This document shows positions 631-36,552 of a stretch of 64,000 nucleotides of DNA, piece after piece; within the stretch, counting starts at the first letter, position 1, and each line of letters begins with the position of its first letter. Source of the stretch: an uncultured delta proteobacterium (GTDB lineage: Bacteria; Desulfobacterota; Desulfomonilia; UBA1062); contig CAWAUM010000010.1 of assembly GCA_963785235.1 (NCBI GenBank), positions 32,001 through 96,000 on the forward strand, given 5' to 3'. The position numbers were made by a program, and so were the translations under genes. The notes below the pieces were generated by a model. That model made no database searches, was not told the DNA's origin, and saw nothing but the letters and a program-made list of their open reading frames with translations.

Positions 631-2975
631 ATGAAAAAGATCGTCCATTTCTGTATTGATCACCCATATTGGGTCCTGGGGATACTAGCGGTCATCACCC
701 TCTTCTTTGCCCTCCAGATACCGAAGATCAAGATGGATTCGCGCGTCGAGGTCATGCTCAGGCATAATCACCCCGCAGTCAAGGTGTTCATCGAGAACAA
801 GGAATCCTTTGACCAGTATTCGAATATCGTTGTGGGCATGCTGCACACCGATATCTATAATCCAAGCTCCCTGGAAAAGCTCCACAAGGTGACCCAGGAG
901 ATAAGGCAGATAAAGGGTATAAAGAAGGTCACGTGCCTCTTGAATGCGAAGTACATCCAGGGCAGCGAATCGGGCCTGAATGTGTCACCCCTTGTCAAGG
1001 AAGGCTCTGTTCCCCAAACACCTGAAGAGATTGCCGCGTTGAAGGCCAAGGTCGACTCGTGGGACGTATACAAGGGTGCGCTCGTTACAAAGGACAACAA
1101 AGGGACAGCCATATCCATCGTGCTCGACAACAACATCGAGACGATCCAGATCATCCCCATGTACTTTACCATGGCAGGTATCCTGAAAAAATACGAAGGC
1201 CCGGAGAAATTCTTCATATCGGGCACCAAGGTCCTGGAGGCGCTCCAGAGCCACTACATGATCAAGGACCTCATCTTCCTGCCCCCCCTGGTGACCGTAG
1301 TCCTCCTCATATGCCTCTTCTTCTTTTTCAGGAATTTCAGCGGCATGCTCCTGCCCCTGCTCTCGGTGGGTATCGCCTGCCTGTGGACCTTCGGCATGAT
1401 GGCCCTGGCGAAGATCCCGCTGACCATGATCTCCACTGCCATGCCCGTGGCGCTCATGGCAGTGGGTGTGGGGTATGGAGTCCATGTGGTGGAGAATGTC
1501 TTTGCCGACTCGTCCGCAGGGAAAAAGGGCAAGTCCGAGATGAAGATCACCCTCATGAGGATAGCCATCCCGGTCGTCATCGCCGGCCTCACCGAGCTCA
1601 CCAGCTTCCTGTCCCTGTGCTCGTGGTGGGTTGTACCCCTGACCCAGTTCGGCATGTCATCCGCCTTCGGGTTCACCTGCGCCATGGTGCTCGTGCTCAC
1701 CTTTATCCCCGCTGATCCTGTCGCTGACCGACCGCGAAGACAAGATATATACCGCCCACCACCACACCAGGACCGACATTGTTGGCCCGATCCTGAAGCG
1801 TCTCTCCTACATAAGCCTCCACAAGAAGGGGTGGGTCTTCGCGATCTCCCTGGTGGTCTTCATTGCATCCTTCATGATGGGCAGGCACGTGAGGAGCGAC
1901 ATGAACCTGGCGGAAAACTTCAAGGAACGCAGCCCCATCAGATACGCGGACAAGATCCTGAACGACAATTTCGGGGGCACATCTCAGTACAACGTGGTCT
2001 TCAAGGGGAAGCAGGCAGACGATATCAAGGACCCTGCGGTGCTGAGGGCCATGGACAAACTCCAGAACGAGCTGAAGGGGATCGACGGGGTCGGCAAGGT
2101 TGTATCCGTTGTGGATTTCATCAAGCGGATGAACCAGTCCATGAATGGCGGCGACCCTGCCTTTTATACCATACCCGACTCCAAGGACCTTGTGGCCCAG
2201 TACCTGCTCCTCTATTCCTTTTCCGGCGGCGGCGATGAACTGGACACCTTTGTCACCTACGATTTCAAGGATGGGCAGATCCTGCTCCAGATGAAGTCCC
2301 AGAGCAGCTATCTGACACAGGATGTAGTTGATACGGTCAAGAGATTCGAAGACAAGGAGCAAGGGGATCCCCCAGGTGTCAGGGATCATTACTACAGGCC
2401 TTGCAATGCTCGCAAAAGAGTTCAACAAGGTTGTTGTTACGAGCCAGATCCAGAGCTTCATCTTCTCCTTCACCCTGTGCTTCTTCGTAACCGTGGGGAT
2501 CTTCCGCTCATTCAGGCTGGGTATCTACAGCATGGTGCCGCTCCTCATCCCCATTACCCTTGATTTCGGGCTCATGGGGTCTACAGGCATAAAGCTCAAT
2601 GCCGCAACCGCGACGGTAGCGAGCATCGATATCGGCCTGGGGATCGACTACTGCATCCATTTCCTTTCCAGATACCGTCATGAGATAAAGCTCGGCCGGT
2701 CAGTGGATGAGGCCATAGATTTCACCATGAACAGTGCAGGCAGGGCCATCATTTACAATGCCCTGGCCATCTCTGCAGGGTTCCTGGTCCTGGTGCCTTC
2801 TCAATTTTCGGTCATCTCCCAGATGGGCATCCTCGTGGCCGTGGATATGCTGACCATCGCCCTGTCTGCCCTTACCTTCCTGCCTGCCTGCATCAAGCTC
2901 TTTCCCCCGAAGATCCTCAAAGACACCTCGGATAAATACGTGGCCATAGACCCCTTGATGGAAGAACCCGGATAG
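631..2975 (+). CDS. MMPL/RND-family exporter (two frameshifts, ~1712 and ~2355)
   Basis: ORFs 631-2238, 1853-2563 and 2328-2975 join into two RND repeats (GVGYGVH; GLGIDYCIHFLSRYR). Likely sequencing indels. Confidence 0.85.
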
Positions 2976-3023: not shown

Positions 3024-4395
3024 GTGAACCTAGATCCGTTAATCCTCTCCCGCATCCAATTCGCCTTTACCGTCTCCTTTCATATAATCTTTCCTTCCAT
3101 AACCATCGGATTATCCATATGGCTGGCGCTGCTTGAAGGGCTGCATCTGTCGACCGGCAACTCTCTCTACCAGAGGCTCTTCGATTTCTGGCTGAAGATC
3201 TTTGCGATCCTGTTCGCCATGGGTGTTGTCACCGGCATAGTCATGGCATTCCAGTTCGGCACCAACTGGAGCGTGATGTCGTCAAAGGCAGGATCCGTCA
3301 TGGGGCCCCTGCTCGGGTATGAGACCTTCACGGCATTCTTGCTCGAGGCGACTTTCCTCGGTGTTGTCCTCTACGGCCGCAACCGCGTGGCGCCGTGGTT
3401 CTATTTCTTTTCGTGCTGCATGCTGGCCTTTGGGGCAGTCCTGTCGTCCTTCTGGATACTGTGCAACAACAGCTGGATGCAGGTGCCGGTAGGTTATGAA
3501 ATCATTGACAGGCAAAATCGTGCCCACCGACTGGAAGGCAATCGTCTTTGGGCCCACCTTCATTGCCCGCTGGATTCACATGCTCCTGGCCTCATTGCTG
3601 ACCACCACCATGTGCATCATCGCTGCCGGGGCGTTCTACCTTCTCCGGGGTGTTCACCGCCAGGAGGCCCGGTTCATGATGAAATGGGGACTGGCTGTTA
3701 CCGCCATCCTCATCGTCACCCAGATCATCATCGGAGACATCAACGGCAAGCACATGTACACCTACCAGCCGGCCAAATTCGCGGCCGTTGAGGCCCGCTG
3801 GCAGCCGGAACACCCGGGCAGGCAACTGTGGTTCGCCATCCCTGACGAAAAGAACGAAAGGAACCTCTTCGAGATCACCACACCTTACCTCGGAAGCTGG
3901 TTCGCCACAGGAAGCTGGAGCGCACCTGTATCCGGGCTCAGCGATTTTCCCAAGCAGGACCACCCCCCGGTGCTCATCGTGTTTTTTGCCTTCCGTGCCA
4001 TGGTGGGCATCGGCCTTTTCATGCTTGGCATCAGCCTGTTGGGCCTGTTCCTGCTCGCCAGGGGGGGGCTTGAAACCTCGCGCTGGTTCCTCTGGGCCTC
4101 GTGCCTGGCCTTCCCGTCCGGATTTCTGGCCGTTCTCCTGGGCTGGTTCACCACAGAAATAGGGCGCCAGCCCTGGGTGGTATACGGCCTTCTGCGCACA
4201 TCCGACACGCTGACCCCGACACTGACCGGGGCAAACGTTCTCACCACCCTCATTGGCTATGCGATTGTATACTCCATGATCTTTTTCCCTGGGGCCTTCT
4301 CTGTTTATGGCCTGCTTCTCCAAGGACCAACTGGAGCTGAAGCTCATATCACGGCTGACGCAGTAACAGCCGGCACCACTAAGGCAAAGGAGTAA
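3024..4395 (+). CDS. cydA: Cytochrome bd quinol oxidase subunit I (frameshift ~3510)
   Basis: SRIQFAFTVSFHIIFP, FQFGTNW, NSWMQ, QPAKFAAVEA, FRAMVG and EIGRQPW motifs; one extra base near 3510 splits it. Confidence 0.95.
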
Positions 4396-4399
4396 TGTG

Positions 4400-5380
4400 A
4401 TGGGCGCAACCTGGCTTCCTGTCTTCTGGGCATCTCTGATTGCCTTTGCCATGCTCTTTTATGTCATTCTTGACGGTTATGACCTTGGAATCGGCATCCT
4501 GTCGGGCACTACCCGGGATGAGGATTTCAAGGATACCATGATGAGCGCCATCGCCCCATTCTGGAACGGAAACGAAGTCTGGTTAGTCCTCATCGGGGCC
4601 GGTCTCTTTGCAGTCTTTCCCATGGTCTATGCAATTTTTCTTCCCGCCTTCTACCTGCCCATGGCCCTTATGCTTATTGGGCTGATCTTCCGAGGTATCT
4701 CATTCGAATTCCGTTATCATGCAGGGCGCTACAGACGTTTCTGGGACTGGGGGTTCTGTTTCGGCTCCTTCATGGTAAGCCTTGTTCAAGGGATAGCCAT
4801 GGGAAGGATGGTCCAGGGGATCAGCGTTGTTAACGGGCAATATGCAGGGGGTGCATTCGACTGGCTGACTCCATTTTCTTTGTTCTGCGGTGTGGGTCTG
4901 GTAATCGGATATACGCTACTTGGTGCGGCCTGGCTGGTCTTCAAGACACAAGGCGATATACGCGATTGGGCCTATGACCAGTTGGGTTGGCTTCTTGCAG
5001 GGGTCCTTCTGGTTCTTGTGGTCGTCTTTGCCTACACCCTTGCCATCCATCCTCGTGTGCGGGATCGCTTTTTTGAAGACATGTGGCTTATGATATTCCC
5101 GCTGATCATAGTCCTTTCATCCATCAGCCTGTGGACAGGGGTAAAGAGAAGGCTTGATTGGGTCCCATACGGGATGGCCGTTGTCATCTTCTTTGCCGCA
5201 TTCCTGGCCCTGGAGGCCAGCTTCTGGCCTTATCTGATTCCATTCACCGTTACGATTGAAACGGCAGCGGCCCCTATAGAGTCGCTTCGATTCCTCTTCT
5301 ATGGGGCAGGGATAGTGCTCTTCCCTGTTATCTTATTCTACACCGGCATGGTTTACTGGATAATGCGGGGAAAGGTTTAA
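4400..5380 (+). CDS. cydB: Cytochrome bd quinol oxidase subunit II
   Basis: YVILDGYDLGIG, PFWNGNEVWL, FRGISFEFR; follows cydA with RBS AAGGAG. Confidence 0.95.
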   Translation: MGATWLPVFWASLIAFAMLFYVILDGYDLGIGILSGTTRDEDFKDTMMSAIAPFWNGNEVWLVLIGAGLFAVFPMVYAIFLPAFYLPMALMLIGLIFRGISFEFRYHAGRYRRFWDWGFCFGSFMVSLVQGIAMGRMVQGISVVNGQYAGGAFDWLTPFSLFCGVGLVIGYTLLGAAWLVFKTQGDIRDWAYDQLGWLLAGVLLVLVVVFAYTLAIHPRVRDRFFEDMWLMIFPLIIVLSSISLWTGVKRRLDWVPYGMAVVIFFAAFLALEASFWPYLIPFTVTIETAAAPIESLRFLFYGAGIVLFPVILFYTGMVYWIMRGKV

Positions 5381-5381
5381 C

Positions 5382-6527
5382 TTGCAAGCGAACCCGCCTC
5401 TTCTTCTTATAGCCGGGGCCGGAGGTGCTACAGGCTCTACCGTTGCCGCCGCCATTGCAGCAATGAAGGAAGACCCTGATAAAATGCTGCCCTGGCTGAC
5501 TACGAGCCACTGGTTTAAGGACCGGGACCTCCTGAGAGGCATGGAACTTGCCGGATGGGATGTAACCCCTCGAACCCTTGGGCAGGCAATCGAGTACCAT
5601 GGGGTTCTCCCCCCTGAGAAATATCTTTCCTGCCTGGAACATCTTGGCAAGTTTCCCATACGCCGCGCACCGGGCAATGATTTACCTCTTCATAAACAGG
5701 TGGAGCACCTCATAAGGGATATCCAAGATTTCAAGGGCCTCTTCCCGGATACCCACCCTGTTCTTGTCAATCTGCTTCCGGCAAGCAGCGTAATGGACCT
5801 TCAGGAATTCAAAGCCATCGATGAAATCTATTCTCAGGCCGATGTGCTGAACTTCCCTGATCTGGCCTATGTCCTTGCTGCCATATCTACAGGCACGCCT
5901 GTCGTGAACTTCACATCAAATTGCATCGAGTTGCCACTGATTGCCCAGGAGGCTCTTAATGCAGGGGTTCCCTTGTGCGGCCGCGACGGGAAGACCGGCC
6001 AGACCTATCTGAAGGTGGTGCTCGCCTCGGCACTGAAGGCACGTGGCCTGCAGGTGGATGGATGGTACAGTCTGAATATCCTTGGTAATGAAGACGGCAG
6101 GAACCTTGCTGACCCCGATAAGGCGGCAGGCAAGATCTCCAATAAAACAGAGCTGCTCGAAGATATTCTGGGATACCGGGTTGGTCATCAATATGGTGCG
6201 CCCTCCCATAAGGTTACAATCGATTATTATCCCCCCCGTGGGGACTGCAAAGAGGCCTGGGATGTCATTGACTTTACCGGGCTGTTCGGCATGCCCATGA
6301 GCCTCAGGTTGAATCTGCAGGCCCGCGACTCTATTCTGGCAGGGCCCATGATCATTGACCTGGCATGGTGGATGGTGGTCGTGCATATGGCCAAACGGCC
6401 CGGCCTGGTGCCGGAGCTGGGATTCTATTTCAAGAAACCCACAGGTGCTAATCCGCCAGTTACCTTTCAGGATCAGCTCGCTGCGCTTCAGAGCCTGGAA
6501 AATGATTGCCGGGAGATAATCCATTGA
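5382..6527 (+). CDS. myo-inositol-1-phosphate synthase family protein
   Basis: Rossmann GAGGATG, GWD, GRDGKTGQT, WYSLNILGNEDG, DYYPPRGDCKEAWD, RDSILAGP, FYFKKP; TTG start 1 nt after the cydB stop. Confidence 0.9.
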   Translation: MQANPPLLLIAGAGGATGSTVAAAIAAMKEDPDKMLPWLTTSHWFKDRDLLRGMELAGWDVTPRTLGQAIEYHGVLPPEKYLSCLEHLGKFPIRRAPGNDLPLHKQVEHLIRDIQDFKGLFPDTHPVLVNLLPASSVMDLQEFKAIDEIYSQADVLNFPDLAYVLAAISTGTPVVNFTSNCIELPLIAQEALNAGVPLCGRDGKTGQTYLKVVLASALKARGLQVDGWYSLNILGNEDGRNLADPDKAAGKISNKTELLEDILGYRVGHQYGAPSHKVTIDYYPPRGDCKEAWDVIDFTGLFGMPMSLRLNLQARDSILAGPMIIDLAWWMVVVHMAKRPGLVPELGFYFKKPTGANPPVTFQDQLAALQSLENDCREIIH

Positions 6528-7396
6528 AACTCGGATACAGCACGAACGCATTCATAAATTATTCATTATTCGATGCAATCGACATGATCGCCAAGCTGGG
6601 TTTCGGCGGGGTAGAAATCATGGCGGACCGCCCCCATCTCTACCCCCAGGACTGGGAGCCGGAAGGCCTCAAACGGCTCAAAAATCTGATTCATGAAAAA
6701 AGACTCCGGATTACCAACCTGAACAGCTTCACCCTGTTCGCCGTGGGCGACACCTACCTTCCCTCCTGGATAGAGCCCATGAAAGAGAGAAGGGAGATCA
6801 GGATCCAACACACCCTTGAATGCCTGAAGCTGGCATCTTATCTGGGGTGCAGCAATATCTCCGTTCCTCCAGGAGGCCCTTTGACCGGCATGTCCCGCAA
6901 GGAGGCCATGACCCTTTTCCATGACGGCATGGAAAGGGTTATACCCCTGGCAGAACAGCTTCAGGTAAAGATCCTTGTGGAACCGGAGCCTGACCTGCTT
7001 CTGGAAAATACCCGGCAGTTCAAGGAATTCATTCAGGAAACAGCATCGAAGTATCTCGGGCTCAATTTCGATATCGGTCATTTCTTCTGCGCCGGTGAAG
7101 ACGTATGCCGGGCCTTTCACGAACTTTTGCCCTGGACGGGGCATGTCCATATTGAAGATATTGCCCATAACCGCCGTCATTACCACCTTATCCCGGGCCT
7201 CGGGGCCATTGATTTTCACAACATCCTCAAGGTCATCCTCAAATCAGGCTATAAGGGTGATATCAGCCTGGAACTCTACACCTATGCGGACATGCCAGTG
7301 GAGGCCGGCCAGGAGAGCCTGAGCTTTCTCCTTCCCCTCTTTCAGGAAGCGGGGTTTGACCTTATGGCCATGCGCAGAGAAAGGCATCAAACATGA
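6524..7396 (+). CDS. Sugar-phosphate isomerase/epimerase (xylose-isomerase-like TIM barrel)
   Basis: TTG start overlaps upstream stop (TTGA), RBS GGAG; metal motifs EPEP, FDIGH, HVHIED, H..PG.G, ISLELY. Confidence 0.88.
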   Translation: MKLGYSTNAFINYSLFDAIDMIAKLGFGGVEIMADRPHLYPQDWEPEGLKRLKNLIHEKRLRITNLNSFTLFAVGDTYLPSWIEPMKERREIRIQHTLECLKLASYLGCSNISVPPGGPLTGMSRKEAMTLFHDGMERVIPLAEQLQVKILVEPEPDLLLENTRQFKEFIQETASKYLGLNFDIGHFFCAGEDVCRAFHELLPWTGHVHIEDIAHNRRHYHLIPGLGAIDFHNILKVILKSGYKGDISLELYTYADMPVEAGQESLSFLLPLFQEAGFDLMAMRRERHQT

Positions 7397-7441
7397 AGAA
7401 CAGGAGAATCGTAGCCTTGAAAATTTCAAACCCTCTCAACA

Positions 7442-8216
7442 ATGATTCAAAACTATCTGGAAATGAACCTGATAAAAGAACGGCCTGTTCCGGTTCGCGC
7501 ACGGTTACCTCTCCAGGATAAGGCCCGATACGTTCTCAGGCACTTCACCACCATAGCCAACAAGTATGATTTCATGAATACCATCCTCAGCCTCGGACTC
7601 CACTACCTCTGGAAACGGCTATCCGTAAAGGCCTTGGGGTTGAAAACCGGCGACCGGGTAATCGACGTGTGCGGGGGTACAGGGGATCTTTCGATACTGG
7701 CGGCAAAGGCCATTGGTCCTCATGGACGGGTGACTCTCTATGACATCAACCGCGCCATGATGGAAGGCGGCAAGCCAAAGGTAGCAAAGGCATCGCTTAC
7801 AGAGCGAATCCACTTTGTCCAGGGAGATGCTGAGTTCATGTCTTTCCCCGAAGGTTCTTTTGATGCAGCCATGGTGGGCTTTGGTGTTCGAAACCTCACA
7901 GACATGGACAAAGGCCTTCAAGAGATGTACCGGGTCCTCAAGCCGGGGGGGAAGATGATGTGCCTGGAATTCTCCATACCCACCTCTTTGTGGTTCCGGT
8001 TCCTCTATGATTTCTATTCTTTTCAACTCATGCCCCTGGCGGGCAAACTCCTGGCGGGAAACAGCGAGGCCTATCTCTATCTTCCCGAGTCCATACGGAA
8101 GTTCCCTGCACCGGATGCTTTCGCAGCCAAGATGACGGATACCGGGTTTTACCCGGGTGACCTTCCGAAGGCTTACCAATGGTATTGCGGTTATCTATAT
8201 CGGGGTTAAACAATGA
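7442..8216 (+). CDS. ubiE: UbiE/MenG-family quinone C-methyltransferase (frameshift at 8147-8150)
   Basis: KYDFMNTILSLGLH..WK, DVCGGTGD, FGVRN, CLEFS, AYLYLPESI. Removing one T restores the end TRVTFRRLTNGIAVIYIGVKQ*, whose stop overlaps the next ATG (ATGA). Confidence 0.9.
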
Positions 8217-8806
8217 AACTCAACTGGGCGGAGCGCATGGCGGTGAACAACCCCCTTCGACCACTGCAGCAGCGCCTGGAGCTCACGCTGCTGAAAAGGC
8301 ACATACCGCTGAAGCCCGGTTTGCGCATTCTGGAAATCGGGTGCGGAAGAGGGGCCGGTGCGCGTCTCATAAGAAACATATTCCATCCATCCCACATCCA
8401 TGCCACAGACCTGGATGTGGAGATGATCCGGATGGCACATACCTACCTTAGCCCTGAAGACCGCACCGGCATCGACTTCTGTGTTGCCGATGCCGCCATG
8501 CTCCCCTTCCCTGAGCGCTCCATGGACGCGGTGTTCGGTTTCGGGGTTCTGCACCATGTCCCTGACTGGCAGTCTGCACTCAGTGAGGTGGTCAGGGTCC
8601 TGAAGCCGGGCGGCATATACTTTTTCGAAGAGCTCTTTCCAACGCTCTACCAGAACTTCATAACAAAGCACATCCTCCTACACCCAAAGGAGAACCGTTT
8701 CAAGAGCCATGAGCTGAAGAAGACGATGAAACGATCAGGTCTTGTGCTTGGAAAATATTTTGAGATACGGCTTATAGAGATATTCGGAGTAGCTCAGAAA
8801 AACTAG
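8213..8806 (+). CDS. Class I SAM-dependent methyltransferase
   Basis: ILEIGCGRG, DAAMLPF, LHHVPDW, RVLKPGG. Confidence 0.9.
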   Translation: MKLNWAERMAVNNPLRPLQQRLELTLLKRHIPLKPGLRILEIGCGRGAGARLIRNIFHPSHIHATDLDVEMIRMAHTYLSPEDRTGIDFCVADAAMLPFPERSMDAVFGFGVLHHVPDWQSALSEVVRVLKPGGIYFFEELFPTLYQNFITKHILLHPKENRFKSHELKKTMKRSGLVLGKYFEIRLIEIFGVAQKN

Positions 8807-8907
8807 CTCTTTTCTGCTTTGTTCATGTTTATCATTGAATATTATCGAAGAGATCAATAGTATTAGAAAATCGAGCCCTGTGATAAGATACCGTTTAAGG
8901 AGGGCAT

Positions 8908-10518
8908 ATGTCCTCGAACAGGGTGCCGCTTGATGAGATCCTTTCTCCCGATGAATGCCGGATTATTGATGCCTACGCATCCGGTAATCAAGGTGAGGAT
9001 GTCTTACCCGGCATAGTTGAATTCCTCAGGATGAACTTTTCAATGAGGATCGATGTCGACCCTGACATCATTGACAGCTACAAGACCGACAGTTCCAACC
9101 TGACCGGGAATGCTTCAGCCCTCGCAAGGCCATCTGATGAACGTGAATGCGCTATTATCCTTCGCATGTGCCAGTCGTCCCGAATGCCAGTCACTCTATC
9201 CGCCGGCCGCTCGAACCTCACGGGTAGCGCCACCCCACCAGATGGGATGATTGTCTCCCTCTCAGAGATGAAAACTCCTGGAATACAGGTCAACAATATC
9301 GCAAAATCGGTTGTCAGCCCTGTAGGAATTATTTTCGAAGACATGAGGAAGTCCGTGCTTGAACAAAGTGAAGGGAAACTCTTCTTTCCCATAGACCCGA
9401 CGAGCCGTTGTGATGCCATGGTCGGTGGCGCCATTGCATGCAATGCCTCCGGGTTCACACCGGGAGAGACCGGTGCCATGCGTTCCTGGGTTCGATCTCT
9501 CCGGATCCTCCTTATGAACGGCATGGGCATTACCGCCAGGCGCGGTCAATATGTCTCCGAGGATGGGATGTTTCTATTCACTCATGGATCACAGGAGCTT
9601 GCTGTTCCCGTTCCCAGGTACTCAAGGCCATCGATAAAAAATGCAAGCGGTCCGTATTCCAACTCGAACGGCAGTGTCGACCTTGTCGATCTGATAATTG
9701 GCAGCGAAGGGATATTTGCACTGGTGACCGAATGCACTCTGGCATTGTCCGATCATCCGCGTGAATATCTCGATCTGTTCCTCTCTCTGCCCGATGAGTC
9801 TGATGCCCTGAATCTTCTGGTTTATCTCTCCGGAAGGCTGCCGGAGGAGTTTTCATTGCTCAGTGCTTTTGAATATTTCGGTCCGAATTGCAGGAGATAT
9901 ATGGACCACGAACACCGGCTTTTTAGGACCGACCATGCTGTTGGTGTCTATATACAGGTCCCCTTGCACAATGAGCCACTGGAGCAATCAGCGGCGAAAT
10001 GGCTTGGGATCCTCCAGGATGCCCCATGCCGGATCCAGGAGGATGCCATCATGATTCTTCTGACGGATCGTGACAGGGCGATCTTTTTCGAAGCCCGCCA
10101 CTCCTTGCCGGCACGTTCGCTTGAAGTAGTAACAAGGCGCGGCACCCATACTATCATGACCGATACGGTTGTCCCGTTGGCGGGGTTTGCAGAGTTCCTT
10201 GAATACACCCATGCCCTCATCCTTTCGGAAGGGTTCGATTACCTCGTCTTCGGTCACCTGGGCGACTGTCATCTCCATTTCATGATCCTCCCGGAAAAAG
10301 ACCAGCTACGCCGTGGGGTGGATGTGTACGACAGAATCATAGAAAAGTCCTCAACCCTGGGAGGTGTCTACTCGGGCGAGCACGGCACGGGTAAGAGGAA
10401 ACGAGGCGATTTCCTGAAATGTTATGGTGCCCAGGCAGCAGAACAGGTCCTGGCAACAAAATGTGTATTCGACCCCCTGCTTCTCCTCAACCGTGGCAAT
10501 GTCATAGCATCTCCTTAA
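8908..10518 (+). CDS. FAD-binding oxidoreductase (GlcD/D-lactate dehydrogenase-like, PCMH fold)
   Basis: SAGRSNLTGSA, DPTS, GGAIACNASG, GSEG, FGHLGDCHLH, SGEHGTG, DP..LLNRG; RBS AAGGAGG. Confidence 0.88.
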   Translation: MSSNRVPLDEILSPDECRIIDAYASGNQGEDVLPGIVEFLRMNFSMRIDVDPDIIDSYKTDSSNLTGNASALARPSDERECAIILRMCQSSRMPVTLSAGRSNLTGSATPPDGMIVSLSEMKTPGIQVNNIAKSVVSPVGIIFEDMRKSVLEQSEGKLFFPIDPTSRCDAMVGGAIACNASGFTPGETGAMRSWVRSLRILLMNGMGITARRGQYVSEDGMFLFTHGSQELAVPVPRYSRPSIKNASGPYSNSNGSVDLVDLIIGSEGIFALVTECTLALSDHPREYLDLFLSLPDESDALNLLVYLSGRLPEEFSLLSAFEYFGPNCRRYMDHEHRLFRTDHAVGVYIQVPLHNEPLEQSAAKWLGILQDAPCRIQEDAIMILLTDRDRAIFFEARHSLPARSLEVVTRRGTHTIMTDTVVPLAGFAEFLEYTHALILSEGFDYLVFGHLGDCHLHFMILPEKDQLRRGVDVYDRIIEKSSTLGGVYSGEHGTGKRKRGDFLKCYGAQAAEQVLATKCVFDPLLLLNRGNVIASP

Positions 10519-10812: not shown

Positions 10813-12765
10813 TTATTTATCATCGTCAAGCCGGTACCGTTTCTCTCTATAGGAAATAGTCGGCCAGATGGCCTGTGCCAAGGCGTCCCTGATGAGTTCC
10901 GGATCCTTTTCGACCGGCTCCAGCTTGCCTTGCCGGAGAATATACGCGGTTGCAGGCTTATTGGGGGTATGGATTACCACCTGGTCTCCCACCATGTAGG
11001 CCTGGTTGTTGTGGAACTGCATAACAGCCCGGCCAGGATAATTTTTAGGCGTTTGCAAAAGGTCATGACCTTGCATGGGATGACTCGATTCGATCCCCAT
11101 GATAGACAGAAGAGTCGGTGCTAGATCAATCTGGCTGGCCACTTTGTCGTAGCGGCCTGGCTTGACATCAGCCCCTATAATCAGTGCCGGAATATGAAAA
11201 CTCTTGACGGGTACCAGTTCGTCGCCGAAAACCTTTTCTTCATGGTCAGCCACAACCAAGAACAGCGTATTATCCCAGTAAGGGGCCTTTTGAGCACGCT
11301 CAAAGAACTTTCCAAGGGCATAATCAGAGTATTTTACAGCGTTATTGCAGGTATTTTTGGGCTTCTCATAGAGTTCTATGCGCCCATCGGGGTATTTGAA
11401 GGGAGCGTGGTTGGATACGGTGAATACAAAGGTGAAAAAAGACTTATTCCCATGGGCTAGAAGCTTTTGGTGGGTAAGGTTGAAAATATCCTCGTCGGAG
11501 ACCCCCCAGGTGCCATGAAAAACCGATTCGGTAAAGTACTTTTCATCGACCACACGATCGAAACCGTTTCCAAGGAGAAAGCCCTGCATGTTGTCGAATT
11601 TGCTGTCCCCTCCATAGAAAAACTCGGTGGTGTACCCCTGCTTTTTCAAGAGGCGGCCGATGGTAAAAAAGTTATGCTGTGACAGACCCAGTTTAACGAT
11701 ACTGCGCAACGGTGTCGGGGGAAAGCCTGTCACAACAGCCTCGACCCCTCCGGACGAACGTGTCCCAGTGGCATACAGCTGGCTGAACCATAGACCTTTC
11801 TGCGAAAGCTTTTCCAGCTCCGGAGTCAGAGGAAGACCGCCCAAGGATTGAACAAACATACCACCCAGGCTTTCCTCGAGAATAATGACAAGATTGAGTG
11901 GCCGGTCCCGTTTCTGCTTCGGAATTTGCCTGTGTAGCGTCGGGATATCCGGGTTGGTGAATGCAGCCTCGGGAAAGCCCATCGCCTTGTGCACGCGCCG
12001 GATGACCTCATCAGTGTCCATTTTACCGTAAGATCGCATCGAATACGACTCATTATAAATTCCGTAAATTGCATAGCAAAGAGAATAGGCGGAACTGACC
12101 CCCAACTGGTTGACCAGGGGATCGTTGCAAAAAGCTGCCGTATTCAGGTTGGCGGGGCGGCTGCTGAAACTGGATCGGGCGCCGGCAAAAAGAAGAAGCA
12201 GAACCAAGGGCAGAACAACCAGTCTCCGCTTTACCCCCCATGGCTGAGATGCAAGGGTCAGCCTATGAATCAATTTCCAGCTCCCCAAGACCGTCAGGAC
12301 AATCAGGACCCCAGCCAGGATCAGGGGGACTTTGTAAGCGGACCATAAGGTTGAAAAGACCTCCTGTGGATGATCGAGATATTCGAAGAAGAGACGGTTC
12401 GGACGGATGTCGAACTGGTCTATAAATGATGGCGTTGCCACCTCCATAAATACAATAAACACGGCATACCCTGTCAGCCATACTTGCAAAACGCGATGCC
12501 AGATGCGGTGAATCTTGTTACTGGAGGGGAGAAGAAGGCTTATGAGGGTAGGCAGGGCAACGGCGATCGATAACAACAAAACATCCATGCGGATGCCATA
12601 CCCTAAGACTGGCCACAGTCCTTCGATGGCTGTGACCCTGTCCCATTTCCAAGCAATGAAGCATAGTCGGGCCAAGCCCAGAAAAACAAGTGTCACAAGA
12701 AAAAAGCCGAATATCGGTAATAACGGGCCTAAATATTTAGCTAACCAACTTTTTACAGTCATCAT
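10813..12765 (-). CDS. LTA synthase / phosphoglycerol transferase family membrane sulfatase
   Basis: Several N-terminal TM segments, NLVIILEES, catalytic Thr (GTRS), SNHAPF, VADH, ASQIDLAPT. Confidence 0.9.
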   Translation of the reverse strand: MMTVKSWLAKYLGPLLPIFGFFLVTLVFLGLARLCFIAWKWDRVTAIEGLWPVLGYGIRMDVLLLSIAVALPTLISLLLPSSNKIHRIWHRVLQVWLTGYAVFIVFMEVATPSFIDQFDIRPNRLFFEYLDHPQEVFSTLWSAYKVPLILAGVLIVLTVLGSWKLIHRLTLASQPWGVKRRLVVLPLVLLLLFAGARSSFSSRPANLNTAAFCNDPLVNQLGVSSAYSLCYAIYGIYNESYSMRSYGKMDTDEVIRRVHKAMGFPEAAFTNPDIPTLHRQIPKQKRDRPLNLVIILEESLGGMFVQSLGGLPLTPELEKLSQKGLWFSQLYATGTRSSGGVEAVVTGFPPTPLRSIVKLGLSQHNFFTIGRLLKKQGYTTEFFYGGDSKFDNMQGFLLGNGFDRVVDEKYFTESVFHGTWGVSDEDIFNLTHQKLLAHGNKSFFTFVFTVSNHAPFKYPDGRIELYEKPKNTCNNAVKYSDYALGKFFERAQKAPYWDNTLFLVVADHEEKVFGDELVPVKSFHIPALIIGADVKPGRYDKVASQIDLAPTLLSIMGIESSHPMQGHDLLQTPKNYPGRAVMQFHNNQAYMVGDQVVIHTPNKPATAYILRQGKLEPVEKDPELIRDALAQAIWPTISYREKRYRLDDDK

Positions 12766-12943: not shown

Positions 12944-13654
12944 TTACTCCTTCTCCATGGGAAAGGTCAGCCCCGCCCCGAACCAGCCGATGACGCTCAC
13001 CATGGGCACGAGGGATATGACCAGCAGGAGATAGATAAGCCCCTCCGTGCCGAGCGAGGTGAACACGTCCGGAAACATGGCCCGCCAGAGAAACGTGATC
13101 AGTGCCACACAGAAAAGGATAAGAGACAGGTATATCTTGATCCTGATGGGCGTCATGGGCCGGGCTCCGTAGTTGAGCCACCAGGTGAAGAAGCCGCTCA
13201 GGATGGCCGGGACCGAAAAGAGGATGCCTGCGCCCAGGCAGTGGAACGCGGTTGTCTCAAAGGATTTCACATCCGTGATGAGGAACAGGATGCAGAACAG
13301 GGCCGGGGTGATGGAAAAGGCGATGGGGAAGTGTACGAGCATGGGGTGCGGGTGGCGCCGGAAAAACGGGAAGCGCTTCAGCAGCATCTCGAGCGGGTTG
13401 GGCAGTGAGCCTGCATCTCCCTTTTTCTTCAACACGCCCACTTGGGGATATTTATCCAGGACCTCGGGTCCGTGCGGGGCCGCACCGATATCGGTGGTGA
13501 GGTCCTGGCCTGCTGGGTGACGCTTCATGTGGAGCCCGGTCTTCCACAGCCTGCTTTCGCTTAGGTCAAACACCCTGCCCTTGTGGGCCACATATGCGGG
13601 TTTTCCATCCTTTCCGCTGAATTCCGCCAGAGATTCCGGATCGAATTCCTTCAT
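12944..13654 (-). CDS. Cytochrome b5-like heme/steroid-binding domain fused to DUF2231-like membrane domain
   Basis: AYVAHKGRVFDLS..W..G.H..RHPAGQDLT..APHG (b5-like), then HPHPMLVHFPIA and about 4 TM segments. Confidence 0.85.
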   Translation of the reverse strand: MKEFDPESLAEFSGKDGKPAYVAHKGRVFDLSESRLWKTGLHMKRHPAGQDLTTDIGAAPHGPEVLDKYPQVGVLKKKGDAGSLPNPLEMLLKRFPFFRRHPHPMLVHFPIAFSITPALFCILFLITDVKSFETTAFHCLGAGILFSVPAILSGFFTWWLNYGARPMTPIRIKIYLSLILFCVALITFLWRAMFPDVFTSLGTEGLIYLLLVISLVPMVSVIGWFGAGLTFPMEKE

Positions 13655-13696: not shown

Positions 13697-14638
13697 TTAA
13701 AAAAACGTCAAGCTCAACACTGTTGTCAGGAGCATGAACAAAGGATAGTAGCTGCACCTGTTAAACAGTTGAAATGCCTCCGCGGCCCCCCTGGTCTTAT
13801 ACAAATGGTAAGCAGGTATCAGGATAAAATACAATCCCGAAAACATCGCCCCCAGGAGATAGACAGGGCTTATGTGGTTTGGCACTATCCAGAACATGGC
13901 CACACTCATGGCAACGGCAAAGGCCAGCGAAGCATAGATGATCTTTATAGACACCTGTGCACCGAAGCGTACAGGGATTGTCCGGGCCTTTATCTGCTGA
14001 TCGGTATCCAGATCGGACAGATCGTTCGGGACATTCTGCCCTCCGATCTCCCAGAAGAAGAGCCAGAGAAAGAGTATTATCAAGAATGGCATGGAAGGTT
14101 GAGGCGTTACTGCAAATACAGCCGCAATGGGGCCCGAGGTTTTGACTATCCCGCTGATGATACTGCGGAGGTGGGTGATCTTTAAGAGATAGCAGTAGAT
14201 GACTTCAAACATACAGGCACCAAGGAAAATGACAATGCATATGGGATTGAGAAAAAAGGCCCCTGTCAGCGCCAGAACCGCCCAGGCAGAGGCCCACAAC
14301 AGGGCATCCCTGTATCTCAACATCCCCTGCGCAAGGGGGTGGCGTACTAATACGCTGTCCAGGTCCGGTTTCGATTCATGGGCTTTGTTTGAGTGAATGA
14401 GTTCCTTGTCAACACGGTAATCTATGATATCGTTCAGTGCATAAACAGCCGTATAACCCGAGAAGGCGGTGATCAGACCCAGGACAATGACACTTGCAGG
14501 GGGAAAGGCACCCAAACAAAGCAGGGCCGCCAACCCGGGGGTTGCCAGATCCAATAGTAAATGGGGCGTGCGGGAAAGTGCGAGAAAAAGGTTCAGTCTC
14601 GTAATTCCTGCCTGCACTGGAAATGATGTGGTCTTCAA
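13697..14638 (-). CDS. UbiA-family prenyltransferase
   Basis: Asp-rich motifs NDIIDYRVD and NDLSDLDTD, RHPL..G, multiple TM segments. Start uncertain. Confidence 0.9.
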   Translation of the reverse strand: MKTTSFPVQAGITRLNLFLALSRTPHLLLDLATPGLAALLCLGAFPPASVIVLGLITAFSGYTAVYALNDIIDYRVDKELIHSNKAHESKPDLDSVLVRHPLAQGMLRYRDALLWASAWAVLALTGAFFLNPICIVIFLGACMFEVIYCYLLKITHLRSIISGIVKTSGPIAAVFAVTPQPSMPFLIILFLWLFFWEIGGQNVPNDLSDLDTDQQIKARTIPVRFGAQVSIKIIYASLAFAVAMSVAMFWIVPNHISPVYLLGAMFSGLYFILIPAYHLYKTRGAAEAFQLFNRCSYYPLFMLLTTVLSLTFF

Positions 14639-14667: not shown

Positions 14668-17259
14668 TTATTTCTTCTTCTTTTTAAATAACCCCTCCAT
14701 CATATTATCAAGGGATTTGCGGGTTCCATCCGTACCGGACGGCAGCGTGCCTTTGTCCTGGAGCTTCTTCAGGCCCTGATCCAAGGCCTTGTTGGCGTAG
14801 TACCTGGTGAAGGCACTGCTCAAAGATTTTACCTCCACCATGGGAAGAGGCTTCTTGACCGAGCCGGTAATGGTGATGGGCAGCACGAGCCGTTTCTGGT
14901 CGTTCATGATGGCCGAAAATGCGTCGGCCCTGGCGCCCATGCGCTGGGAGAACCGCTTGGGCAGCACTACGTTTCCCTTGAGATGCACCTCATTGGTCTC
15001 CATGCTGATGGTGCCCTTCAGGTTGGACTCGGTATCCACATCCTTGCCGCTCGAAATATTCAGGAGCTTCATGGAGTCGACATTGATGACCTTCTTGGCA
15101 AGGTCGATACTCGTATTCAGCGATTCAAAGCGGGTTGCATTGTATTTCTGTACCTCTGCCGGGGCAAAGCCGAAGATCTCCGATGCCCCGGGCACTCCCA
15201 GAATGGAGCTCAGGGCTGTGCCTGCCAGGTCGAAATTCTTCCACTCACCCTTGCTGATGGTCAGATTACCCTTGGCGCCAAGGTTGTTCAGTGCAGGTGA
15301 ACCGGCCACACCGGTGGCCTTGAGGTCGCCCGAGATGGCCCCGGTAAACACCCCCTTGAAATTCGTGAGCACGTCCAGGATACTGCCTGCCTGCACATTG
15401 TTGAACACAGGGGCTGCAGCCCATGCCTTGGTCTTGAGGTTGTACGATGCAGATCCCCTGATGGAACCCTTGAGCGCGTTCAGGTCGAATGAGCTCACCT
15501 TGAACTGGTCATTTTCCAAGGTAAAGGTGCTGACAAGGGTTGAATATGGCACTTCCATGAAAACGCCTCCCTGGGACTTCATGGAACCCCTGGCCGTGAG
15601 CGCCTTATCCTTTTTCAGGGCATCCACCGCAAAGGTAACGGCATTCATATCGGCCTTCATGGGGCCTGCCAGGACCTTGGCCTTGGGCTGCTCACCTTCC
15701 TTGGGCTTGGTGAGTACAAGGCCCATGCGCTCGGATGCGGCCTGTACATTAATGGCCATGGGTCTGCCGGTCCCACCGCTCAGAATGGTCTTCACCACTA
15801 CATTCCCTGTAGGCTTGAATGCCTGCAGCATGGGGATGATAGCCTGGGCAGCCTGCAGCGAGACAGGTCTGGTCTGTATGCTGATCTGGTAGCTTGATTT
15901 GCCGGAAGCCTTTCGTGCCTCGCCTGAACCTTGTGCTGTTATGGCCCCGAGGTTGAGATCAAGGACGTTGATCTGGGTTATCTCGGGTTTCAAGGTTAAC
16001 CTGCTGGAAAAAGTCATGGGGCTGCCTGCAGGCTTGCTTAAGATCTTGCCAAAGGTGATTGCCATGGGTTTCATGTCAACAGCCGTATTCACCTGGAACG
16101 CCTCTTTGGTGCCCGTGGTGATCAGGCTGAATCCGGCAGGTCCGGCAAGGGTTATCTTGGCGGGTATGAGCCCGGCAAACATGGGCAGCTGTTCAAGAAT
16201 GGGACCCGGGGTTAGGCGATCCGACTTGAAGGACATGTTCCAGGCCGGAGCTGTCCTGAAATTTTGGAGTGCTCCCTGGAAAGAACCGCGGTCCTGCCCC
16301 AGTGTAAAGGTGCCGTTGCTGATCATGAGCTGCTGCTTGTCAAACTCCAGGATGAGATCGTTGGTAATTTTGCATGAAATGCCCTTGAGACCTTTTGCAG
16401 GTTGTTTGATGTCAGCGCTGCGCAATACAAGCCCTTCCAGGTCCAGGGCCACCTTGGAGGCGATCTTGTCTTTCAGGATCCCTTTCGCGGTGATGTCGAT
16501 CTTCATGGCACCTGCCTGAATGGGCATCTTCACCGGGAGTGCGGTAAGGGGCAGCGAATCCAGAACAAGATGCACGTCTACCGGCATCCCTGTAAAACCG
16601 CCCGTTTCCGGCATCGGCCCTACCGTGCCTGCCAGGGCAAAATTCTGTCCTTCAGGGCTCATTACCGATGCAGACAGAGAGAATGAAACGGGTTTGAACA
16701 TGGAGATGTCCTGAGATTCCAGTTCGATATCGCTGATGGCAAAGGGCTTGGCCTCAGGCCCCAGTTTTTCATCCCTGTAGGTTATCATACCCTGCTTTAT
16801 CACCACGTTGCTCACCAGCAATGAGGCAAAAGCCCCGGGCTTTGGTTTCTTCGGTTTCTCACCCGGCTTAGGCGTGACCAGGGTTGCGAAGTTGAACACG
16901 CCTTGAGCATTCTTCACAATATGAATCTGCGGCTCCTTGAGTACAACTGTGTTGATCTTTATCTGCCTTGCCAGCAGGGGCAGAATGGCAACCCTGACCT
17001 TTGCCGCCTTGAGGGTAAGGAAGTCGTCCTTTGAGAATGCCGCGTCATCAAAGATGCGCAGGTCTTTTATCTCAGCACCCAGACCAGTCAGGATCGTGAG
17101 CTTGATTTCCCTGAAATCCACCTGCCTGTTCGTGTAGGTCTTGATCTGGGCAAGGATAGTGTCCTTGTGCTTGTTCAGGTCTATGGCAAAAGGCAATATG
17201 GCAAGGATTACAACAATCAATCCAACAACAGCAGCAACGCCGATTGCAAACTTTTTCAT
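14668..17259 (-). CDS. AsmA-family protein
   Basis: N-terminal TM anchor, AsmA-like N-terminus (DLNKHKDTI..., LPLLARQIKI), beta-rich body, C-terminal LPITITGS..KP; RBS AAGGAGG. Confidence 0.85.
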   Translation of the reverse strand: MKKFAIGVAAVVGLIVVILAILPFAIDLNKHKDTILAQIKTYTNRQVDFREIKLTILTGLGAEIKDLRIFDDAAFSKDDFLTLKAAKVRVAILPLLARQIKINTVVLKEPQIHIVKNAQGVFNFATLVTPKPGEKPKKPKPGAFASLLVSNVVIKQGMITYRDEKLGPEAKPFAISDIELESQDISMFKPVSFSLSASVMSPEGQNFALAGTVGPMPETGGFTGMPVDVHLVLDSLPLTALPVKMPIQAGAMKIDITAKGILKDKIASKVALDLEGLVLRSADIKQPAKGLKGISCKITNDLILEFDKQQLMISNGTFTLGQDRGSFQGALQNFRTAPAWNMSFKSDRLTPGPILEQLPMFAGLIPAKITLAGPAGFSLITTGTKEAFQVNTAVDMKPMAITFGKILSKPAGSPMTFSSRLTLKPEITQINVLDLNLGAITAQGSGEARKASGKSSYQISIQTRPVSLQAAQAIIPMLQAFKPTGNVVVKTILSGGTGRPMAINVQAASERMGLVLTKPKEGEQPKAKVLAGPMKADMNAVTFAVDALKKDKALTARGSMKSQGGVFMEVPYSTLVSTFTLENDQFKVSSFDLNALKGSIRGSASYNLKTKAWAAAPVFNNVQAGSILDVLTNFKGVFTGAISGDLKATGVAGSPALNNLGAKGNLTISKGEWKNFDLAGTALSSILGVPGASEIFGFAPAEVQKYNATRFESLNTSIDLAKKVINVDSMKLLNISSGKDVDTESNLKGTISMETNEVHLKGNVVLPKRFSQRMGARADAFSAIMNDQKRLVLPITITGSVKKPLPMVEVKSLSSAFTRYYANKALDQGLKKLQDKGTLPSGTDGTRKSLDNMMEGLFKKKKK

Positions 17260-17435
17260 GTAAAAAACCTCCTTTGTGAGAACAACTGCGAACATCCCCA
17301 CACCTGGAGGTTATATAACATGCACTAGCTGGACAGACAACGGGTGACTCCGAATAACCGGGGGACGGATTCCTGTTCACATTTTAATCCCAGGCACCAA
17401 TCGCTATTCACTATTTCTGATCACTGATCACAATG

Positions 17436-18718: not shown

Positions 18719-18778
18719 CTTATAATCCTCCTTGTAGATATATATTGGCCCTAAAGGGCCTCTTGTGAATTAACACCT

Positions 18779-20182: not shown

Positions 20183-20322
20183 GTATTTCCAGCCTTGCAG
20201 TACCAATGCCTGTTGTAATATGCCTTCAACCACAGTTACCTTCAGAGGATGGCTGGTTCTTATCATCCATCTTTCAGGAGAACAAGGGCAACCAGAAATA
20301 TTGCTCTACGGTCTTATCCTTT

Positions 20323-20339
20323 TGCAAGCACGGAGCCAA
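20323..20339 (-). promoter_or_regulatory. Possible sigma-54 promoter upstream of purF
   Basis: Minus strand TTGGCTCCGTGCTTGCA: GG-N10-GC with TTGCA -12 element. Confidence 0.45.
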
Positions 20340-20473
20340 ATTATTTATATGCCTCCAATTACCAGTAAAAGTGCACCTGTGCATGCGCAGCGTTCATTGA
20401 AGATTGTTTGGCAAATAACACAATTTCGTTTAAATTTTTTTCGATAGTGCTTTTTTGTGTAAAATTAATTGTT

Positions 20474-36515: not shown

Positions 36516-36552
36516 TCATCTTTTTCATTTGCAGCATTGTGGAGGCCAAGGG

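Follow-up and report, generated by a model that had tools for sequence, protein, structure and literature searches.

Genes of the cytochrome bd-cyclitol cluster

The DNA stretch analyzed here, referred to below as the window, comprises 64,000 nucleotides of contig CAWAUM010000010.1 (positions 32,001 to 96,000; G000:C10:32001-96000 in the numbering of this study) from an uncultured delta proteobacterium. Its host genome, G000, has a size of 3.91 Mb in 13 contigs and is 93% complete, and its nearest relatives are metagenome-assembled genomes (MAGs) labeled Desulfomonilia. The window contains a cluster in which the genes of a cytochrome bd oxidase are followed on the same strand by genes for a cyclase related to myo-inositol-1-phosphate synthase (MIPS), a TIM barrel protein, and two methyltransferases, with genes for a cytochrome b5 fusion protein and a UbiA-superfamily prenyltransferase further downstream on the opposite strand. 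These genes are as follows:

3024..4395, + strand: cydA, cytochrome bd subunit I (PF01654), with a frameshift caused by a single additional A around 3513-3516
4397..5380, + strand: cydB, cytochrome bd subunit II (PF02322, 278 bits; 141.9 bits on TIGR00203, whose cut-off is 117.3)
5382..6527, + strand: MIPS-like cyclitol-phosphate synthase (PF01658, 106 bits; PF07994, 54 bits)
6524..7396, + strand: xylose-isomerase-like TIM barrel protein (PF01261, 131 bits)
7442..8209, + strand: UbiE-type quinol C-methyltransferase (230.6 bits on TIGR01934, whose cut-off is 158)
8213..8806, + strand: second class-I S-adenosylmethionine methyltransferase, termed MT2 (PF08241, 85 bits; 39.5 bits on the UbiG model, whose cut-off is 103)
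12944..13654, - strand: cytochrome b5-DUF2231 membrane fusion protein (PF00173 and PF09990)
13697..14638, - strand: UbiA-superfamily prenyltransferase of a distinct subfamily (PF01040, 107 bits; all NCBIfam models under their cut-offs)

A previous reading of this DNA, made without database searches, had assigned cydA, cydB, MIPS-like, TIM barrel, UbiE, second methyltransferase, and FAD oxidase genes, and all of these families were found here by Pfam and NCBIfam models. The tight gene spacing that it described was also largely confirmed. The stop codon of cydB (TAA, 5378-5380) is separated by 1 nt from the TTG start of the MIPS-like gene at 5382, the TGA stop of the latter (6525-6527) overlaps the TTG start of the TIM barrel gene (6524) as TTGA, a start that agrees with the N-termini of the orthologous proteins, and 45 nt lie between the TIM barrel and ubiE genes. 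The proposed ATGA overlap between ubiE and MT2, in contrast, does not exist: ubiE ends with TAA at 8207-8209, which leaves a 3-nt gap to the ATG of MT2 at 8213, and the TGA of the presumed overlap is out of the ubiE frame.

The MIPS-like gene is the single MIPS gene of the host genome. Its product has a glycine-rich NAD-binding motif at the N-terminus and aligns to the solved MIPS structures 7nwr and 1u1i. Residues K251, K255, K290, K351, D202, and D316 correspond to K274, K278, K306, K367, D225, and D332 of 1u1i and are invariant in 11 orthologues; we take these positions to be the catalytic residues. Both Pfam domains, the NAD motif, and the Lys/Asp positions are shared with canonical MIPS and with a five-membered cyclitol-phosphate synthase (PDB 6k96) that also belongs to the family, whereas the window protein differs from canonical MIPS in forming a separate subfamily that is paired with a TIM barrel. 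In a phylum sample of 301 Desulfobacterota genomes, full-length orthologues were detected in 11 genomes (E-values of 1e-116 or better, 51-63% identity), and 40 other genomes have canonical MIPS alone, matching near 1e-45. By its domains and conserved residues, the window enzyme is a member of the MIPS family, with a predicted activity of converting glucose-6-phosphate to inositol phosphate.

The structural model of the TIM barrel protein (pLDDT 86.5, pTM 0.88) has as its nearest solved folds in Foldseek the L-xylulose-5-phosphate 3-epimerase UlaE, MJ1311, YcjR, and Art22. By sequence, its second-best PDB match is the aromatizing dehydratase AsbF (3-dehydroshikimate dehydratase, PDB 3dx5). The fold and a metal-site pattern of the Glu-Asp-His-Glu type are common to the window protein, AsbF, and the myo-inosose-2 dehydratase IolE; however, the sequence matches are distant and far under the family cut-offs (E-values of 1e-7 for AsbF and 3e-11 for the IolE model), and structurally the protein comes nearest to keto-sugar(-phosphate) 3-epimerases (UlaE) and to MJ1311; a dehydratase role is at most predicted. 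UlaE, MJ1311, YcjR, Art22, and AsbF all act next to a carbonyl via a metal-stabilized enolate. Such a mechanism would suit an inosose substrate, without telling an epimerase from a dehydratase. Close orthologues of the TIM barrel (at least 50% identity) were found in 19 of the 301 genomes.

Among NCBIfam models, the best match of the window UbiE was MpqE (259.9 bits, under the cut-off of 335). This protein is the sole UbiE of the host genome, where the next-best match is MT2 with 51.7 bits. The window UbiA scored only 38.8 bits on the ubiquinone (UQ)-type model TIGR01474, which has a cut-off of 275, and the b5 domain of the cytochrome b5-DUF2231 protein matched PDB 6nzx (E-value of 8e-21). Searches of PDB sequences, a protein atlas, and Foldseek with the TIM barrel, MT2, UbiA, and cytochrome b5-DUF2231 proteins returned generic family labels only.

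Conservation and variants of the cluster in Desulfobacterota

The gene neighborhoods were compared in the best 80 of 527 MIPS relatives found in a species-level genome collection, in 80 UbiA loci of that collection, and in 80 loci holding relatives of a 3-dehydroquinate synthase (DHQS)-like protein from genome G206, described below. The order MIPS-TIM-ubiE-MT2 is present in all five Desulfomonilia loci, with cydAB directly upstream in four of them and an MMPL transporter gene in the fifth, a conservation that exceeds chance. The conserved unit in Desulfobacterota at large is the MIPS-like cyclase plus the TIM barrel, which are adjacent in 75 of the 80 MIPS loci; in four of the five remaining loci, the sequence ends too soon after MIPS for a judgment. 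Apart from the TIM barrel, no neighbor occurs in a majority of these loci; the genes counted directly downstream are ubiE (22 loci), MT2 (11), and ubiA (8), and cydAB accompanies the unit in 4 loci. Ten MIPS loci from the phylum sample showed the same pattern. The partners that recur with the MIPS-TIM pair are MT2 or a true UbiG, the distinct UbiA subfamily, and cytochrome b5-DUF2231, and in genome G236 the row MIPS-TIM-ubiG-ubiE occupies one strand. MT2 and UbiG were found together in none of the loci examined, which suggests that the two methyltransferases are alternatives. Other recurrent contexts of the MIPS-TIM pair are Hsp20-Lon, PilZ-Nudix-cupin, and ABC transporter genes.

Terminal oxidase genes adjoin the unit in several lineages. 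Adjacency to cydAB was observed in 4 of the 80 MIPS loci, 3 of the 80 UbiA loci (L201, L224, and L277), and 5 of the 80 DHQS-like loci. Desulfomonilia and the Desulfobacterium group are among the lineages that show it, and the arrangements with cydAB include at least three unrelated ones, with cbb3 genes in another. In 10 of the 80 MIPS loci, a same-strand P-type ATPase gene directly precedes the unit, and 8 of these have cbb3-type oxidase genes further upstream. In eight loci from one group of Desulfobacterales MAGs (L061, L066, L074, L078, L096, L103, L113, and L119), the MIPS-TIM pair ends a same-strand row of genes for a multihaem cytochrome c, a COX1-family subunit, a FixO/cytochrome c subunit, a small cytochrome c, and a P-type (CcoI-like) ATPase. 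The host genome of the window has two more cydAB loci (G000:C1:393561-395943 and G000:C3:504832-506522), the cluster-linked oxidase being one of three bd oxidases. Thus, the sequence-only reading had correctly singled out an association of a cyclase, a TIM barrel, and quinone-type methyltransferases, which is conserved across several families, while the link to cydAB that it emphasized is lineage-specific: the association with cytochrome bd recurs but is not universal.

The same type of TIM barrel is also found beside a second, unrelated cyclase. In genome G206, minus-strand cydBA genes are followed by a TIM barrel orthologue (55% identity) and genes for a DHQS-like protein (NF004852, 552 bits; only 224 bits on the aroB model TIGR01357, whose cut-off is 305), UbiG (TIGR01983, 261 bits, above the cut-off of 103), a cluster-type UbiA, and UbiB (TIGR01982, 401 bits, under the cut-off of 487.55). 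Genome G264 carries the TIM barrel and DHQS-like genes at one place and ubiG-ubiA-ubiE at another, and both genomes keep a separate canonical AroB. A window-type TIM barrel gene (52-63% identity) lies directly upstream of the DHQS-like gene in 23 of the 80 DHQS-like loci, all of which carry Desulfobacterales labels or the names of Desulfobacteraceae/Desulfococcaceae genera. In the full set of 80, ubiG was found in 16 (14 together with the TIM barrel), cluster-type ubiA in 13, and ubiB in 4. Homologues sharing 41-50% identity with the DHQS-like partner lie next to EboC- and EboF-like genes outside the phylum, in Planctomycetota, Verrucomicrobiota, Bacteroidota, Cyanobacteria, Gammaproteobacteria, and Actinomycetota, whose loci have an EboF-like gene in 36 cases and an EboC-like gene in 26 and none of the quinone-type genes. 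Neither EboC- nor EboF-like genes were detected in the 23 loci with the TIM barrel (EboB was not among the queries). The gene order indicates that one type of TIM barrel has either of two unrelated carbocycle-forming enzymes as its partner, with both versions joined to UbiA/UbiE/UbiG/UbiB-type genes. A candidate third cyclase upstream of the unit in f46 loci was rejected, as the open reading frames (ORFs) proved to be metV-metF and a spurious overlapping ORF.

The cluster-type UbiA (at least 44% identity) was detected in 35 of the 301 genomes, comprising 15 of the 19 TIM-carrying genomes and 20 of the 282 others. Its neighbors in the 80 UbiA loci are cytochrome b5-DUF2231 (26 loci), UbiE (22), MT2 (19), the TIM barrel (9), and MIPS (6); in another locus set, cytochrome b5-DUF2231 adjoins this UbiA in 11 of 20 cases. 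The module as a whole, namely a cyclase with a window-type TIM barrel, a cluster-type UbiA, a UbiE of clade B (see below), and either UbiG or MT2, is complete in the window, and variant forms of it are present in G206, G264, and G236. Family f2 and others show a further arrangement, in which a divergent MIPS (30-37% identity) precedes two tandem TIM paralogues (35-45% identity; L151, L152, and L150 in G081, G295, and G222); cytochrome b5-DUF2231, cluster-type UbiA, and MT2 are encoded elsewhere in the same f2 genomes.

Quinone genes of the host genome and genes flanking the cluster

UbiE is almost universal in the phylum, being encoded by 266 of the 301 genomes. A tree was built from 60 chosen, non-random UbiE sequences: the window protein, 20 other cluster-linked proteins, 6 second copies, 10 proteins from genomes with UbiG, and 23 other high-scoring proteins. 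It consists of two clades split by a long branch (support 100/100). The first, menaquinone-type clade contains proteins of MqnA/D genomes without the cluster, one f2 copy out of two, and a single copy from each of the two-copy genomes G209, G169, G236, and G206. The second, benzoquinone-type clade (clade B) includes UbiE from genomes in which a high-scoring UbiA gene lies near ubiG, the canonical ubiquinone arrangement. Within it, a subclade of 28 sequences (100/100) holds all 21 cluster-linked UbiE proteins, including that of the window, and each of four genomes with two UbiE proteins has one copy in each clade. We therefore rejected the possibility that the cluster UbiE is simply a housekeeping MenG as a full account, given its separate clade and the division of the two-copy genomes between the clades. 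The cluster UbiE is nevertheless the only UbiE above the cut-off in seven genomes, three of them with MqnA/D.

In a UbiA tree of 52 sequences, where two probable wrong-frame ORFs with very long branches were kept but disregarded, the cluster-type UbiA forms its own clade of 13 sequences (SH-aLRT 100), apart from the UQ-type (UbiG-adjacent), MqnP-like, MenA, and EboC-like proteins. Identity with MqnP was considered and rejected: the g31 genomes hold a separate UbiA of 180 bits, and the tree parts the two clades.

No match to MqnA/D was found in the host genome of the window, and the best scores there were 44 bits for MenD (cut-off 244) and 148 bits for MenB (cut-off 343); the search for MenB above its cut-off covered this genome only. 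UbiD and chorismate lyase UbiC had no matches and UbiG was not found in this genome; for UbiC this is weak evidence, as its positive control matched only in E. coli. The genome has two UbiA-family genes, that of the cluster and a MenA-type gene on contig C1, and a UbiB-like kinase is encoded elsewhere. The congeneric genome G209 (100% complete) is without MqnA/D, MenD, MenA, UbiD, and UbiC. The expectation that carriers of the cluster would lack ring-synthesis genes is thus borne out by the window genome as regards MqnA/D, MenD, MenB, UbiD, and UbiC, and not by carriers in general.

Outside the module, the following genes flank or interrupt the cluster:

631..2975, + strand: MMPL/RND-type lipid transporter gene, in two ORFs (631-2238 and 2328-2975), both with PF03176
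8908..10518, + strand: GlcD-like FAD-linked oxidase (PF01565 and PF02913)
10813..12765, - strand: LtaS/sulfatase-family membrane protein (PF00884, 171 bits)
14668..17301, - strand: AsmA-like/DUF748 envelope protein (PF05170 and PF05359)

The FAD-linked oxidase, which had been read as a cluster member, is present but falls outside the conserved set: no homologue was found in the five Desulfomonilia loci or in the 80 MIPS loci. The LtaS-like gene is likewise missing from the same two sets, including the space between MT2 and cytochrome b5-DUF2231 in L001 and L003. In two Desulfomonilia loci, nothing separates MT2 from the convergent cytochrome b5-DUF2231 and ubiA genes, and the FAD oxidase and LtaS-like genes are therefore window-specific inserts. 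An MMPL gene is also found next to the cluster of the Desulfomonilia relatives L003 and L037, and the AsmA-like gene stands beside ubiA only in Desulfomonilia (L003, L005/L208, and L203).

The cydA gene is read in two ORFs, 3024-3791 and 3496-4395, which cover positions 1-158 and 157-413 of PF01654, respectively. Alignment with three relatives having an intact cydA places an extra A in the A-run at about 3513-3516, and cydA is in a single frame in relatives L001, L002, L004, L005, and L037. Among contigs from four DNA runs, one divergent contig showed a net change of -1 at this site and two others showed no indel. The break in the MMPL gene at 1713 adjoins a C-run, and in each of two runs one near-identical contig lacks one base there; the shorter contig accounts for all of the depth in one run and about half in the other. 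Because of the intact relatives and the MMPL indel, the cydA frameshift is probably an assembly error rather than the mark of a pseudogene, and homopolymer indel errors are probably present in this assembly; with a -1 correction at about 3513-3516, both cydAB families are full length. The two homopolymer-adjacent breaks also call for caution over other apparent pseudogenes in the same genome.

Further downstream, the minus strand at 17495-23023 encodes a truncated class-II aminoacyl-tRNA-synthetase-like protein (17495-18718), a PurF-like amidotransferase, and an MprF-type lysyl-phosphatidylglycerol synthase (20474-23023). Envelope-lipid functions (MprF, LtaS-like, MMPL, and AsmA-like) are therefore abundant around the cluster. 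An ORF of 1052 residues on the plus strand (36505-39663) is an unusual fusion of an AMP-binding (acyl-CoA synthetase-like) domain and a 2-hydroxyglutaryl-CoA dehydratase D-component (HGD-D). No RNA element was matched by Rfam in positions 1-24000 and no tRNA was found in the whole window, and the counts from a promoter and terminator scan were close to the shuffled expectation, with all candidates inside genes.

A candidate cyclitol-fed route and its alternatives

We propose that the module encodes a modular, previously undescribed route from a cyclitol to a prenylated and methylated lipid of the polyhydroxybenzene or benzoquinone type, whose ring would come from a sugar phosphate and not from chorismate; judged on gene content and phylogeny, this reading is slightly favored. 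As suggested by its family and active-site positions, the MIPS-like enzyme would cyclize glucose-6-phosphate to inositol or inosose phosphate, a job for which the EboD-type DHQS-like cyclase would be the equivalent in other lineages. The TIM barrel enzyme, by metal-assisted enolization of keto-sugars, may then isomerize or dehydrate the cyclitol towards an aromatic ring. The distinct UbiA-subfamily enzyme would prenylate this ring, the benzoquinone-type UbiE, whose family is observed and whose substrate is predicted, would C-methylate it, MT2 (elsewhere a true UbiG) would add a further methylation, and the cytochrome b5-DUF2231 membrane protein would contribute a putative redox function.

The conversion of inositol phosphate to trihydroxybenzene, phosphate, and two water molecules would be redox-neutral, as would the loss of two waters from deoxy-inosose. 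No dehydrogenase would therefore be needed, which answers the earlier remark that no inositol dehydrogenase is apparent in the window. Prenylating, O-methylating, and C-methylating a hydroxyquinol ring once each would lead to a quinol resembling demethoxy-ubiquinone, and these predicted steps agree exactly with the gene content. Trihydroxybenzene is a more economical intermediate than the tetrahydroxybenzene put forward in the sequence-only reading, both being predicted compounds. In Desulfomonilia, the translational coupling of the biosynthetic genes to cydAB suggests a product that is used by the quinol oxidase or synthesized alongside it, and the recurrent adjacency to terminal oxidases (cydAB and cbb3) fits a role in oxygen reduction. 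The original idea that the operon builds the oxidase's own quinone from a cyclitol thus gains from the synteny of the cluster, the missing ring genes, the exchange of cyclases, the UbiE clade, and the precedent described next, and loses the universal link to cydAB and the FAD oxidase as a component. We regard the cyclitol-quinone interpretation as bold and plausible, with independent comparative evidence and a biochemical precedent behind it and a chemistry that is inferred.

The closest precedent, by analogy, is the ebo/thallusin system. According to a recent preprint, it forms a cyclitol-derived aromatic ring that is prenylated by a UbiA-family enzyme, EboC, which acts on a hydroxylated aromatic, and Actinomycetota replace eboD with ino1 plus a pair of presumed isomerases/dehydratases (10.64898/2026.05.21.724671); the EboD product is given in a review as a deoxy-inosose (PMC12904256). 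As outlined in these two sources, the system combines a sugar-phosphate cyclase, a TIM barrel, and a UbiA-family enzyme, as does the window cluster; its EboD is replaceable by inositol-3-phosphate synthase with isomerases/dehydratases, and the second cyclase found beside window-type TIM barrels is an EboD homologue. In contrast, the window TIM barrel scored 30.9 bits on the EboE model NF035939 (cut-off 250), the window UbiA falls in a clade separate from the EboC-like protein of L149, no EboF is linked (neither EboA nor EboB was searched for), there is no sign of an aspartate-condensing logic, and window-type clusters have UbiE, UbiG or MT2, UbiB, cytochrome b5-DUF2231, and adjacent terminal oxidases. 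Ebo-like sets also occur in Desulfobacterota (L149, G220:C22:404000-420000; L153, G212:C213), where a canonical-type MIPS in place of EboD precedes genes for a protein whose squalene-cyclase-like match is faint, a pair of TIM barrels, UbiA, and a type-I phosphodiesterase, mirroring the Actinomycetota-type ebo.

Two established benzoquinone pathways offer further comparisons. The ubiquinone pathway shares with the cluster a benzoquinone-type UbiE and a UbiA-superfamily enzyme, and sister versions of the cluster also encode UbiG and UbiB; it differs in that the window genome has no UbiC or UbiD match, its UbiA is not of the UQ type, MT2 is not a UbiG, and a cyclitol ring would arrive already oxygenated, with no requirement for a decarboxylase or hydroxylases. 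In the published survey, the canonical O2-independent ubiquinone pathway (UbiT/U/V) is placed, within Desulfobacterota, only in class GWC2-55-46, and some of the surveyed genomes have neither menaquinone pathway (PMC13386864). Methyl-plastoquinone (mPQ), made by the mpq genes of Nitrospirota, is a recently recognized, lineage-restricted benzoquinone whose pathway, like the one proposed here, is built from UbiA/UbiE-type parts; its ring, as described, comes from chorismate via 4-hydroxybenzoate with a UbiD/X-type decarboxylation and involves no cyclase or TIM barrel (PMC11874023). A full-text literature search, which did not cover supplementary files, found no paper linking MIPS or a sugar-phosphate cyclase to quinone genes.

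The main rival explanation, which is still alive, is that two unrelated units are often neighbors: the MIPS-TIM pair would make inositol or a modified cyclitol for a stress solute or lipid head group, and UbiE, MT2, UbiA, and cytochrome b5-DUF2231 would finish a quinone whose ring is conventional or salvaged. For the TIM barrel, even a phosphatase or phosphodiesterase function like that of endonuclease IV/CbiR is conceivable, in keeping with its weak match to the CbiR phosphodiesterase (E-value of 1.7e-8). Most MIPS-TIM pairs indeed stand alone, 58 of the 80 loci having no adjacent ubiE and some of these lying beside Hsp20-Lon, Nudix-cupin, or ABC genes, including stress genes; 20 of the 35 genomes with a cluster-type UbiA have no close TIM orthologue; and the window genome encodes a MenA outside the window (G000:C1:239642-240532; TIGR00751, 119.3 bits against a cut-off of 102). 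This explanation sits poorly, however, with a TIM barrel that accompanies two unrelated cyclases, the DHQS version being wedged between cydAB and UbiG-UbiA-UbiB, with the uninterrupted row in G236, and with the presence of the UbiA subfamily in most TIM carriers. A phosphatase role would also be senseless beside a cyclase that forms a deoxy-inosose, the product given for EboD in the review (PMC12904256), since this carries no phosphate, and no UbiC or UbiD for a conventional benzoquinone ring was found in the window genome or G209. We consider this explanation a minority prospect that nonetheless deserves serious attention. An ebo-like secondary metabolite, that is, a prenylated cyclitol-derived meroterpenoid acting as a signal or protectant like thallusin and not as an electron carrier, appears unlikely. 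It would account for the shared logic of cyclase, TIM barrel, and UbiA, for the kinship of the DHQS-like partner with homologues in ebo-type loci, and for the true ebo-like sets within the same phylum; it fits poorly with the low EboE score, the position of the cluster UbiA outside the EboC-like branch, the lack of EboC- and EboF-like genes noted for the 23 loci, the repeated adjacency to terminal oxidases, and partners from quinone-pathway families (UbiE and UbiG above their cut-offs, and UbiB).

A third alternative takes its cue from the envelope-lipid genes. The product might be a prenyl-cyclitol ether lipid that is never aromatized, with UbiA O-prenylating inositol phosphate as the archaeal digeranylgeranylglyceryl phosphate (DGGGP) synthase does with glycerol phosphate, followed by methylation and export to the outer membrane by MMPL and AsmA-like proteins. 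The scores of the window UbiA on DGGGP-synthase models are about the same as those on 4-hydroxybenzoate transferase models, the Desulfomonilia version of the cluster has MMPL and AsmA-like genes on its flanks, and LtaS-like and MprF genes lie nearby in the window. Such adjacency is, however, confined to Desulfomonilia (MMPL in 2 and AsmA in 1 of the 80 MIPS loci), all characterized UbiE, UbiG, and UbiB proteins known to us are tied to aromatic quinol substrates, and the cluster UbiE, as the only UbiE in three genomes with a menaquinone pathway, is quinol-acting there. We regard the ether lipid as very improbable.

The cyclitol-quinone interpretation itself has several findings weighing against it. 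Its product and the aromatization step are only predictions from genes. AsbF appears only at rank 32 among the Foldseek neighbors of the TIM barrel model, with epimerases and isomerases first, and the UbiA tree does not resolve its backbone, so that the acceptor substrate of the cluster UbiA cannot be inferred from it. Futalosine genes MqnA/D are present in 5 of the 11 MIPS-carrier genomes, and an absence of menaquinone pathways was rejected as a general rule for carriers. Because the cluster UbiE is the only UbiE beside MqnA/D in the three g31 genomes, which also have a separate MqnP-like UbiA, it must at least also serve menaquinone there; the single UbiE of E. coli serves both of its quinones. 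Since MenA is present, salvage of a naphthoquinone precursor could in principle sustain the window organism. A supplement of naphthoquinone is required by Desulfomonile tiedjei; a literature search on Desulfomonile quinones found no paper. Most loci have no oxidase gene nearby, and a single dedicated bd oxidase lineage was rejected, as the adjacent CydA proteins form three groups with 35-44% identity between groups, no closer than one unlinked genomic paralogue. Finally, observations from related genomes are not independent of one another.

The most far-reaching form of the proposal is a third route to a benzoquinone ring that is free of both chorismate and O2. It would start from glucose-6-phosphate, giving inositol or inosose phosphate, or with the EboD-type cyclase from mannose-6-phosphate, giving deoxy-inosose, and would proceed through a TIM barrel dehydratase and hydroxyquinol to a demethoxy-ubiquinone-like respiratory quinone for the bd and cbb3 oxygen reductases of supposed strict anaerobes. 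We put forward this specific version tentatively and think it rather doubtful as a whole. To our knowledge, the rings of all known isoprenoid quinones (menaquinone, ubiquinone, plastoquinone, and methyl-plastoquinone) come from chorismate, and the history of oxygen is bound up with the benzoquinones of higher potential. If the ring came from a sugar, it would be oxygenated from the outset and would need neither a decarboxylase nor hydroxylases. If such a route exists, it would account for genomes that have quinol oxidases and no recognizable pathway for a quinone ring, it would change the prediction of quinone capacity from genomes, and Desulfobacterota would gain a dedicated electron carrier for oxygen reduction. 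Even with a non-respiratory product, the logic of ebo, from a cyclitol to an aromatic ring and on to its prenylation, would extend to a second family of products.

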